A program made the position numbers and the translations under genes. This document shows, piece after piece, positions 2,377-7,798 of a DNA stretch of 27,247 nt. Numbering within the stretch: position 1 is the stretch's first letter; each line of letters starts with the position of its first letter. This DNA is from a virus (lineage: Duplodnaviria > Caudoviricetes), in the IMG/VR virus record IMGVR_UViG_3300005517_000038, positions 1-27,247 of that record; one strand, written 5' to 3'. The notes beneath the pieces are model-generated. The model had not been told where the DNA came from. It did not search any database and worked only from the letters and a program-made list of their open reading frames with translations.

Positions 2377-2598
2377 TTATTTTTCGTATTCCCACATTAA
2401 TTCGGTGTAATTATTATCTCTTAAGTTCTCAATAACTTCATCCCAATACTTAACTCTATCCTCACTCTGTGCTTCATCTCTTGCTATAGCTGCACACATC
2501 CAAGCGGATGAAATCGCATTTACATAGGTTGAATTTAGGATTCTGAAATCTTTTGCCATTTGCCAAGATTTTTCTTTTGGTGTTAATTTTTTGTTCAT
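2377..2598 (-). CDS. Hypothetical protein, probable paralog of 2133..2369
   Basis: 'LTPKEKS' and 'YWDEV' motifs; ATGA overlap with the upstream gene. Confidence 0.7.
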   Translation of the reverse strand: MNKKLTPKEKSWQMAKDFRILNSTYVNAISSAWMCAAIARDEAQSEDRVKYWDEVIENLRDNNYTELMWEYEK

Positions 2599-3029
2599 AT
2601 CATTTTCTTAATTAGGTTTACATATTGTTTGTTCTCTGCGTAATTCTCGTGAAGGTATCTAAGGTACGCTCTACGGCTCTTTACTTTGGTGAGTACCTTA
2701 TCCTGCCAGAGTTTGTAGTCAACTACTGACTGCCTCCAAGAGGTATACTCAGCGTGGTTGTATTGCTCCCCGATAGCAGTAGTGCTACGTTGTCTAGGTA
2801 GCTTCATACCGAATAGGTTATGGTTATCTCTAAATACCTTCGAGGTAAAGTGTCCCGTCTCTATCTTGGCTTGAGCCATAACGATATCGGGGTACACTAT
2901 TCCTACCTCGTTCATTGTCTTTAACATATTAGTCGTGGAGAATGGCATCTCTGCTCTCCGTGTGAAAGAAGCACTGCCTACCTCCAAGGAGATAGACAAT
3001 GCTATTAGTGTTAGGGTTATACATTTCAT
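2595..3029 (-). CDS. GH73-like (glucosaminidase/muramidase) peptidoglycan hydrolase with N-terminal hydrophobic/signal segment
   Basis: 'MAQAKIETG' (catalytic Glu), 'NHNLFGMK', 'YTSWRQSVVDY', 'YAENKQY' (YAxxxxY). N-terminus MKCITLTLIALSISL. Confidence 0.8.
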   Translation of the reverse strand: MKCITLTLIALSISLEVGSASFTRRAEMPFSTTNMLKTMNEVGIVYPDIVMAQAKIETGHFTSKVFRDNHNLFGMKLPRQRSTTAIGEQYNHAEYTSWRQSVVDYKLWQDKVLTKVKSRRAYLRYLHENYAENKQYVNLIKKMI

Positions 3030-4703: not shown

Positions 4704-4719
4704 AATTTAAGGTTTTAAA

Positions 4720-4739
4720 GGGGGTGATTGCTCACCCCC
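4720..4739 (-). repeat. Intergenic GC hairpin A, copy 1 (GGGGGUGA-GCAA-UCACCCCC-UUU), weak terminator-like
   Basis: Perfect 8-bp stem with a GNRA loop on the minus strand; near-identical copy at 5003-5023. Confidence 0.75.
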
Positions 4740-4745
4740 AAGTGA

Positions 4746-5002: not shown

Positions 5003-5023
5003 GGGGGTGATTTGCTCACCCCC
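5003..5023 (-). repeat. Intergenic GC hairpin A, copy 2
   Basis: GGGGGTGA-N5-TCACCCCC. Confidence 0.75.
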
Positions 5024-5030
5024 ATAGTGA

Positions 5031-6016: not shown

Positions 6017-6211
6017 TTACTTGTTTAAGGGTTTGATAGTTAGGTTAAGTTTACTCATTCGATGAGATGTTGTTCTATTGAATTGCTCATCGGTATCGTA
6101 TAGGATACCATTCTCGTAGATGTAGATAGTGCTACCATCTTCTGAGCATAGCACATCTTCTTTGCCGTTAGATAGACTCTCTATCTTTAGTAGCGTTAAG
6201 TCTTTGTTCAT
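6017..6211 (-). CDS. Hypothetical early protein
   Basis: ORF with upstream motif. Confidence 0.65.
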   Translation of the reverse strand: MNKDLTLLKIESLSNGKEDVLCSEDGSTIYIYENGILYDTDEQFNRTTSHRMSKLNLTIKPLNK

Positions 6212-6229
6212 AATTGTTAAGGGGTTTAA

Positions 6230-6255
6230 GTTAAGGGGAGCAGTTACGCTCCCCG
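6230..6255 (-). repeat. Intergenic hairpin B, copy 1 (26-nt exact repeat; 7-bp stem GGGGAGC/GCTCCCC)
   Basis: GTTAAGGGGAGCAGTTACGCTCCCCG, identical at 6989-7014. Confidence 0.85.
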
Positions 6256-6264
6256 TGTTAATGA

Positions 6265-6486
6265 TTAAACTAATTGTCTATGGCCTTCTGCATATTCTAT
6301 TTCGACAATGTGGCCTTCTTGTCTCTTCCACTCTACCCATTCTTTTAGGTCTTGGGCGAATACAAAGTTTCGTTTACTGCCATCATCCTCAATAATCCAA
6401 AAAGCACGCTTGCCATAATCTTCATTACCATAGTAATCTTGTCTAAGTTTGTAGTGCTCTTGGTAGTTGTCAATTGTTGTTTCCAT
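6265..6486 (-). CDS. Hypothetical early protein
   Basis: ORF with doubled upstream motif. Confidence 0.7.
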   Translation of the reverse strand: METTIDNYQEHYKLRQDYYGNEDYGKRAFWIIEDDGSKRNFVFAQDLKEWVEWKRQEGHIVEIEYAEGHRQLV

Positions 6487-6507
6487 TGTTTTAAGGGGTT
6501 TTAAGGG

Positions 6508-6681
6508 TTAAAAAAATAGTGCTATTGTGTTCTGCTCATCGTCTGATACCTCGATGCTTAGGCAGTCCTTAGAAGCTAGGATAAGTTTAGCTACCTCGAT
6601 AGCATCTTGCCTAGAGTAATTCGTTGCGTGGGTGTATACATCTCCATCGATGTCGGTCACCACAATGTTGTGTACTTTCAT
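6508..6681 (-). CDS. Hypothetical protein (57 aa, MKVHNIVVTDIDGDVY...); not in ORF track
   Basis: Translated by hand; AACCCTTAA upstream; directly downstream of hammerhead 2. Confidence 0.65.
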   Translation of the reverse strand: MKVHNIVVTDIDGDVYTHATNYSRQDAIEVAKLILASKDCLSIEVSDDEQNTIALFF

Positions 6682-6697
6682 AATTGTTAAGGGTTTT

Positions 6698-6747
6698 GGT
6701 TAATGCGCCCGTAGGCGTTTCGGATACTCAATCCTCGTCAGTTAACC
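6698..6747 (-). ncRNA. Hammerhead ribozyme, type I, variant cleavage triplet GCA
   Basis: Minus strand: GGUUAA CUGACGA GGAU-UGAGU-AUCC GAA A-CGCC-UACG-GGCG-C A UUAACC. All three stems and the CUGANGA/GAAA core are present; position 16.1 is C instead of U. Confidence 0.8.
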
Positions 6748-6973
6748 TATAGTAATCAGATTCGTAGAATTGTCTGTCCGAATCTTTGGCTTCTGCCTTG
6801 CAAGATTTCATCTCAGAGCGAAAGTCGAAAGCTAGGCTTCTAATTCCATACTCTGTTTCATCACCAACAAGCCCCCAATCTTGGGCTTCGGTTTCGTCTA
6901 GTGGCTCTATGTCCCAATTGATTAAAAAGTGGTTGAACATAGCTAATGCTTCTTGAAATTGTGTATTTTCCAT
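6728..6973 (-). CDS. Hypothetical acidic early protein whose 3' end overlaps hammerhead 2
   Basis: 81-aa ORF with upstream motif; last codons RLTDED* encode the ribozyme's 5' half. Confidence 0.7.
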   Translation of the reverse strand: MENTQFQEALAMFNHFLINWDIEPLDETEAQDWGLVGDETEYGIRSLAFDFRSEMKSCKAEAKDSDRQFYESDYYRLTDED

Positions 6974-6988
6974 AATTTTAAGGGTTTG

Positions 6989-7014
6989 GTTAAGGGGAGC
7001 AGTTACGCTCCCCG
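6989..7014 (-). repeat. Intergenic hairpin B, copy 2
   Basis: Exact copy of 6230-6255. Confidence 0.85.
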
Positions 7015-7022
7015 ATTAATTG

Positions 7023-7253
7023 TTAAAACATTTTAAATAGTAATTTACCATCTTTCCACCACTCGTGTATAAGTGGGTCATCATCTGTACCCAAATATAT
7101 CTCTACTTGGTCGTATCCTTTTAGAGATAATCTTTCGGCTTCTTTCCTTGCTGATTTTAATACTACTCGATTATACTCCTTATGAACGTACCATTGTCCG
7201 TTTGGTACTTCTTCAGCAGATTTTAATCGATAACTAATTGTTAGCTTTTCCAT
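7023..7253 (-). CDS. Hypothetical early protein
   Basis: ORF with doubled upstream motif. Confidence 0.7.
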   Translation of the reverse strand: MEKLTISYRLKSAEEVPNGQWYVHKEYNRVVLKSARKEAERLSLKGYDQVEIYLGTDDDPLIHEWWKDGKLLFKMF

Positions 7254-7298
7254 TTTGTTAAGGGTTTTAAGTTAAGGGGTTTAAGTTAATAAATTGAT

Positions 7299-7358: not shown

Positions 7359-7365
7359 AGGGGCA

Positions 7366-7713
7366 TTAAACTTCACCAGTTAATCTTTTAGACTCTTCTC
7401 TGATGGCTGATATTAGTGCCTTTCTAATTATACTAACATTGTACTTCAACTCAGCAAGGCCGTTATCGGCAAACTCATCGGTCTTGGTGATGCAGTATCT
7501 CTGCTTCTTAATGTAGTCATACTTGTTAGGCTTAACCGATTCGATGGTCACAAACTTGCCGTTAACTCTAATTGGCTTGATGTCTATAACATATGGCCAA
7601 GTGCCACCAGCATAGGTCGTAACGTATATAAACTCATCCGTTGCGATTTTGATTAGGTCGTTAACTTCGTTGATTCTCTCGGCCAAGGCCTTTGGTAATT
7701 TGATAGTTTTCAT
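7366..7713 (-). CDS. Hypothetical protein, first ORF of the early transcript
   Basis: 115-aa ORF directly downstream of hammerhead 1. Confidence 0.75.
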   Translation of the reverse strand: MKTIKLPKALAERINEVNDLIKIATDEFIYVTTYAGGTWPYVIDIKPIRVNGKFVTIESVKPNKYDYIKKQRYCITKTDEFADNGLAELKYNVSIIRKALISAIREESKRLTGEV

Positions 7714-7726
7714 TTTGTAAGGGTTT

Positions 7727-7782
7727 ATCGTTTCGGTGTGTACTGCTCACCTCATCAGTATAGGAACTTACCTATATACGAC
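7727..7782 (-). ncRNA. Hammerhead ribozyme, type III, GUA cleavage site
   Basis: Minus strand: GUCGU A UAUAGG-UAAGUU-CCUAUA CUGAUGA GGUG-AGCAGUACA-CACC GAA ACGAU. Perfect core and stems I-III. Confidence 0.93.
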
Positions 7783-7783
7783 T

Positions 7784-7798
7784 AATATGTCAAAGAAC
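7784..7798 (-). promoter_or_regulatory. boxA-like antitermination element
   Basis: GTTCTTTGACATATT matches the rrn/nut boxA consensus GYTCTTTAANA at 10 of 11 positions and is preceded by a hairpin. Confidence 0.55.

Follow-up and report, generated by a model that had tools for sequence, protein, structure and literature searches.

What becomes of a phage ribozyme that carries a mismatch at the hammerhead fold's best-conserved base pair, and does it matter that the same ribozyme also holds the stop codon of a gene? Both questions are raised by a hammerhead at positions 6747 to 6698 (minus strand) of a virus record, here called the window and analysed over its whole length of 27,247 bases. Among the genes of the record are two endolysin-like ones and those for a terminase, a portal and a virion structural protein. 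The terminase matched 89 phage records, including those of 68 Flavobacterium and 15 Cellulophaga phages, with 25.9% identity at best; from these matches the host is likely a member of the Bacteroidota. No DNA match to the window was found among annotated phages. The region is present in 24 listed sequencing runs, 22 of which are labelled freshwater metagenomes, and eight of the 24 were compared letter by letter with the window; X1-X9, which match every sampled word and may be its source, were left aside. A protein-based scan for orthologous loci returned none in viral contigs and two in metagenome contigs; one of these, L148, is identical to the window, has the same length and was not counted as independent. 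Around the hammerhead site, small orphan genes form a minus-strand block that runs from about 7713 down to 3029, and we read this block as an early operon. The features needed below, all on the minus strand, are the following.

7725..7784: type III hammerhead, canonical, GUA triplet (RF00008, 27.3 bits; predicted cut 7777/7776)
6994..7013: GC-rich hairpin at the previous junction, in the equivalent position between stop codon and leader
6728..6973: orphan ORF of 81 aa, overlapping the ribozyme with its last six codons and its stop
6742..6747: stem I, 5' strand, pairing with 6703-6698
6735..6741: catalytic core C3-A9, CUGACGA, canonical (sequence and covariance model)
6734-6731 with 6725-6722: stem II, 4 bp (sequence and folding)
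6730-6726: loop II, 5 nt, UGAGU, whose first three bases are the UGA stop of the ORF (6730-6728)
6718..6721: core G12-A15.1, GAAA, canonical (sequence)
6706..6717: stem III, 4 bp, 6717-6714 with 6709-6706, loop UACG (sequence and folding)
6704..6705: C16.1 (6705, variant) and A17 (6704) (sequence, L149 and run X10)
6698..6703: stem I, 3' strand, which would be the 5' end of the downstream RNA
6682..6697: A-rich leader, repeated ahead of many small genes of the same operon
6508..6681: downstream orphan ORF of 57 aa, starting 22 nt past the predicted cut (family median 25)

The first-pass annotation had proposed a hammerhead with A15.1 opposite C16.1 and a GCA triplet, and every element of it was recovered base by base between 6747 and 6698 on the minus strand. 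All three stems form when the 50-mer is folded, with stems II and III closed and stem I open, which makes it a type I hammerhead. The core positions C3 U4 G5 A6 N7 G8 A9 and G12 A13 A14 A15.1 all match. The A15.1-U16.1 pair is absent owing to the C at 6705, so that the copy departs from the strict consensus and was classed as a variant. Position 17, where any base but G is allowed, is the A at 6704, and a GUA triplet, with the same A17, occurs in 16 of 127 kin among the matches listed. From the hammerhead numbering, the cut is predicted between 6704 and 6703. A descriptor that left N16.1 free and asked for stems of 6, 4 and 4 pairs matched the window once and matched one of 2000 dinucleotide shuffles; a relaxed version with 4, 3 and 3 pairs matched 6 of 2000, and a smaller shuffle test of the window fold gave 0 of 400. 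Against a covariance model trained on 48 other copies, the window copy scored 65.7 bits, with 15.1-16.1 flagged as the sole deviating pair. The conserved flanks and the loop II pattern of the family are present as well, including the A before stem I that is found in 302 of 312 copies. Another register, which would pair A15.1 with a U, was rejected on inspection, as it disrupts stem I beside the core.

The C itself is genuine. The same base is found in the contig L149, which aligns to the window over 4,502 nt at 99.7% identity (9 mismatches, 2 gaps), and in a contig of the independent 2017 run X10, which spans 6200-7022 without a single differing letter; the contig of run X13 ends 2 letters from 6705 and was not counted. 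That a sequencing or assembly error conceals a canonical ribozyme, a caveat attached to the original proposal, is thus barely credible: the evidence consists of contigs, and Logan contigs lose rare variants, but an identical C would have had to arise in both L149 and X10. We also considered a coding constraint behind the C and rejected it, since 6705 lies outside every ORF of at least 50 aa. Rescue by A-to-I editing at 15.1 was likewise set aside: no evidence for it was found, the bacterial deaminase wants a UACG context, and A15.1 does not lie in one.

A search with the core and stem II pattern found at least 139 loci (about 170 estimated), often several on one contig. Among the matches listed, 135 are distinct, the window included, and 128 of these were called type I, with 110 GUC triplets, 16 GUA, one miscalled hammerhead of another type and the GCA of the window. 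Typically stem I spans 6 bp and stem II 4 bp, loop II has 5 nt and stem III varies; among the matches listed, the next start codon lies a median of 25 nt past the cut (22 nt in the window), and the loop II of the window recurs in four other copies. Sequence comparison places the site firmly within a very common and widespread family of intergenic type I phage hammerheads. Conservation of the stems in homologs, proposed earlier as a check, was found: the stems covary, with two-sided changes in 13 of 15 pairs (0 of 500 shuffles). The underlying alignment has 51 rows of equal length, two of them mis-registered, and 98.8% of its cells are paired, a percentage inflated because rows were chosen for pairing.

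It had also been claimed that strict-consensus searches would miss the site. Rfam does miss it: the models RF00163, RF00008 and RF03152 describe the same core, yet the window copy falls below their gathering thresholds and is unreported even at an E-value of 10. However, canonical copies in the five loci tested are missed too, among them copies that share the stems of the window copy, so that the mismatch is not what causes the omission. Some family copies match RF00163 below its gathering score, and at its thresholds Rfam leaves the family uncaptured. Two side observations concern the composition of the family. A U4C core variant recurs in five distinct copies that have one stem II in common, and there is one U3-A8 swap (these variants are located in L349, L351, L359, L363, L418, L047:1665-1722 and L451). 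One 17-nt word comprising core and stem III serves many type I and type II hammerheads on unrelated contigs (L283-L326).

How exceptional, then, is C16.1 within this family? Among the matches listed, U16.1 is present in 126 of 127 other copies called type I, the exception being the miscalled hammerhead. A complete scan of viral contigs for copies with a base other than U at 16.1 returned eight stretches and no real case (seven canonical copies matched accidentally and one non-member), against an estimated 580 or so stretches when the same pattern was given U16.1. A scan of half the collection with the core left free gave 101 distinct matches, of which 83 are real hammerheads (77 perfect, five U4C and one U3-A8 swap), and none of the 83 departs from U at 16.1. 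All 14 distinct type I copies that carry the exact stem III of the window have U16.1 directly after it; matches to the family model in 94 chosen loci have U16.1 in 97 of 98 distinct copies, the remaining one being without its 3' half. A scan of GTDB for C16.1 produced ten stretches, none real and all chance matches. A further scan for a minor subclass with a 6-nt loop II, which would not match the window copy, gave seven stretches, of which six are real and all six have U16.1; it was given no weight. These sets overlap, and several fix letters of stem I or II, so that C16.1 copies with other stems would escape those scans and the bound on frequency holds for the main subclass. The triplet tally of 312 copies was not used as a denominator for U16.1, since one of its source scans forced U. 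C16.1 was found solely in sequences at least 99.7% identical, the strain cluster of the window; within the scanned sets U4C recurs, and C16.1 does not recur in independent lineages.

This distribution bears on the two readings of the mismatch offered in the first-pass annotation. A tuned timer receives no comparative support, the variant being confined to one strain cluster; a decaying copy is supported as a candidate. The accompanying argument, that NCH triplets cleave slowly under the NHH rule, was probably misapplied. NCH cleavage was reportedly shown with inosine at 15.1, not A. Engineered I15.1-C16.1 hammerheads likewise have a C at 16.1, but their activity reportedly depended on the inosine, whereas the window copy has A15.1.

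The overlap with the gene was confirmed in its geometry: the ORF at 6728..6973 ends in RLTDED, and its UGA at 6730-6728 opens loop II. As a special feature of this locus it did not hold up, since such overprinting is routine in the family. Among the matches listed, with the longest upstream frame taken and stem I unforced, 55 of 114 upstream stops fall inside the ribozyme (33 in stem I, 13 at the UGA of the core and nine in loop II). In a larger set of 242 clear upstream frames, where the search patterns inflate the stem I class, the earliest stop lies at -31 and the latest at +11, counted from C3; by these heuristic frame calls, no frame among the 242 extends beyond loop II. Of the frames that enter the ribozyme as in the window, 15 of 15 end in loop II, against a stop in 98 of the 227 loops otherwise, a contrast with a probability of about 1e-5 if the copies were independent, with kinship uncorrected and frames called heuristically. 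U16.1 is present in every one of the 14 other distinct copies that share the frame of the window copy and its stop in loop II, so that overprint and variant are not linked. The simplest reading of these positions is that the upstream ORF has to end before the cut site, because an ORF running past it would leave the 5' piece without a stop. The absence of any upstream ORF past loop II in 242 cases would be an indirect sign that the family cuts mRNA in vivo, and we consider this family-level pattern more useful than the single variant site.

A ribosome at the stop codon would, from the geometry, cover stems I and II, as it would in most of the family. In a folding model of longer naked RNA, upstream sequence competes with the same two stems (pair probability 0.22-0.37). 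The context folding of the window lies within the family range, 156 of 249 copies being at or below it for stem I and 37 of 249 for stem II.

The 81-aa ORF itself has no PHROG family and no look-alike in the Atlas. Among its five homologs, three end in RLTDED (P0002-P0004), and one further cluster member, P0007, ends in RLTDEA; the RLTDEA end, judged from the protein, would match the family's other frequent stem II. These four orthologs, known from protein alone, share 83-89% protein identity, and the homologs P0005 and P0001 end 7-8 residues earlier. To judge from these homologous proteins, the overlap of ribozyme and ORF is older than the demonstrated age of C16.1. In a separate case, the C-terminal half of the 130-aa protein P0008 is a homolog of the 81-aa ORF, fused to another small domain, which is consistent with shuffling of small genes.

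The junction varies among relatives. In runs X16 and X21, position 6668 is joined to 6977, so that both the 81-aa gene and the ribozyme are absent and the 57-aa gene directly follows a plain GC-rich hairpin and leader. The syntenic genome G001 has one canonical GUC copy at a different junction, identical to the window copy in stem I, stem II and loop II, and the syntenic fragment G006 (15% complete) gave no match to the core pattern. From these three cases, the junction elements look interchangeable. Junctions of the minus-strand block have the A-rich leader in common and often a GC-rich hairpin too. Such hairpins are repeated between stop codon and leader at 6234-6254, 6993-7013, 4719-4740 and 5003-5024, and G001 has at least four similar ones; a stabiliser, a nuclease site and a weak terminator are candidates for their role. 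A sigma-70 scan stood at the level of chance (13 against 16.8). Contigs of the RNA run X24 cover 7061-7297 and 7360-7744 and none covers 6698-6747, though contigs cannot show ends or expression.

Phage hammerheads of this kind have precedents. Perreault et al. (2011; PMC3088659) describe hammerheads that sit beside single genes in the transcripts of phages and prophages. Those are also type I, with canonical C3-A9 and G12-A15.1 segments, lie between small variable genes, can number more than one per transcript, and were proposed to process it into gene-length mRNAs. They differ in that the variant named there at the pair in question is U15.1-A16.1, which cleaves weakly, and not A15.1-C16.1; the filter of that study threw out any 15.1-16.1 mispair, and mutants at 15.1/16.1 are stated to lose at least 10-fold in activity relative to the wild type. 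In an MS2 system, selection against cleavage yielded U16.1G among other changes (PMC4075628), and the ion-selective phage A6C variant of Bcep176 cleaves at 0.31 per min in 1 mM Mn2+ versus 0.0041 in Mg2+ (PMC7151607). Like the window copy, the phage hammerheads with A6C, U3-A8, U4C and U15.1-A16.1 each deviate once and are intact elsewhere; the change is a different one, however, and U4C and U3-A8 were seen again in the family while C16.1 was not. A full-text literature search, with older subscription papers outside its scope, returned no natural A15.1-C16.1 hammerhead, and the literature searched gave no rate for this combination; the available portions of PMC9901934, PMC9521606, PMC544870, PMC12192606 and PMC2238771 contained no C16.1 data.

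On balance we favour, as probable though by no means assured, the explanation that the window holds an mRNA-processing ribozyme which was crippled recently and with nearly neutral effect, a U-to-C change at 16.1 leaving the RNA mostly uncut at little cost. Intact family members would cut a long early transcript just past the stop codon of a gene, some 22-25 nt before the next start, and would thereby yield gene-sized RNAs from a polycistronic early transcript, the upstream ORF ending ahead of the cut. With its A15.1-U16.1 pair recently lost, the window copy would likely cut slowly or not at all; the junction at 6747-6698 would stay mostly uncut, and the element would act as a passive structured spacer, like the plain hairpins at neighbouring junctions. 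Loss of function is suggested by the otherwise invariant U16.1 in a family where tolerated variants such as U4C recur, and a low cost by the relatives X16 and X21 that do without gene and ribozyme, by G006 without a match and by the copy of G001 at another junction. Two observations stand against it. Everything else in the copy is intact (65.7 bits), with no second lesion. Relics also seem to be purged quickly, given that broken copies are otherwise absent (0 of 83 real hammerheads with an unexplained core defect), and yet C16.1 is the sole allele in two assemblies and the 2017 run.

The same observations would suit a variant retained because it cuts slowly or under particular ionic conditions, so that a useful fraction of transcripts is cut within their lifetime and the downstream gene is tuned. 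Every other family position is kept, C is fixed in the assemblies compared, and natural slow variants exist (U15.1-A16.1, PMC3088659; A6C, PMC7151607). We find this doubtful, since C16.1 never recurs among hundreds of kin although U-to-C is a single transition and U4C does recur, and since the junction content is interchangeable among relatives. Near-normal cutting, with tertiary contacts between loop II and the stem I flank offsetting the lost pair, could draw on the strong conservation of the flanking A and the loop II pattern, both intact in the window, but a harmless C should recur, and its absence against some 580 stretches with U makes this quite improbable. The translation switch proposed in the first-pass annotation, in which a terminating ribosome unfolds the ribozyme, cleavage reports translation of the 81-aa gene and C16.1 slows cutting into a useful range, fits the predicted ribosome coverage of stems I and II (a geometry built into the folding model), the competing upstream sequence and the overlap kept in homologs ending RLTDED or RLTDEA. 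It seems very unlikely to us: the 14 copies with the same frame and stop all have U16.1, stop positions are scattered from -31 to +11, context folding is within the family range, and an ORF obliged to finish ahead of the cut explains the stop without any regulation. The broader proposition that an A15.1-C16.1 hammerhead was selected as a slow or metal-conditional cutter, with ribosome traffic over the stop setting the processed fraction, we regard as unlikely. Whether crippled or not, the site holds a natural mismatch, verified by sequence, at the pair that hammerheads conserve most, and offers a ready test of how far a tertiary-stabilised core tolerates it; if dead, it would capture a rare moment of loss, broken copies being otherwise unseen in the family.

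At the head of the operon stands the type III hammerhead, which precedes the first gene by 63 nt; the region of this hammerhead is also covered in the relatives X16 and X21 and is absent from the part of G001 compared. Between it and the ribozyme under study, the intergenic stretch 7370-7280 (minus strand) belongs to a structured 110-nt region with three hairpins (z -2.55) and no Rfam match. The 19 nt before the predicted type III cut, 7796-7778 (minus strand), are fully complementary, with one G-U, to 2936-2918 (minus strand), a stretch inside the endolysin-like ORF 2595..3029, which has the same orientation. When the 214-nt leader was shuffled 200 times, 2 shuffles reached complementarity of this extent, in a comparison made post hoc. 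The 5' piece released by the type III cut could be an antisense RNA; G001 is without both partners. Two short motifs are common to the window (about 8025-7990 and 7803-7786, minus strand) and G001 (L470, about 1610-1640 and 1770-1790) in leaders that otherwise differ: one resembles a Bacteroidota promoter consensus, and the other a boxA antitermination site.
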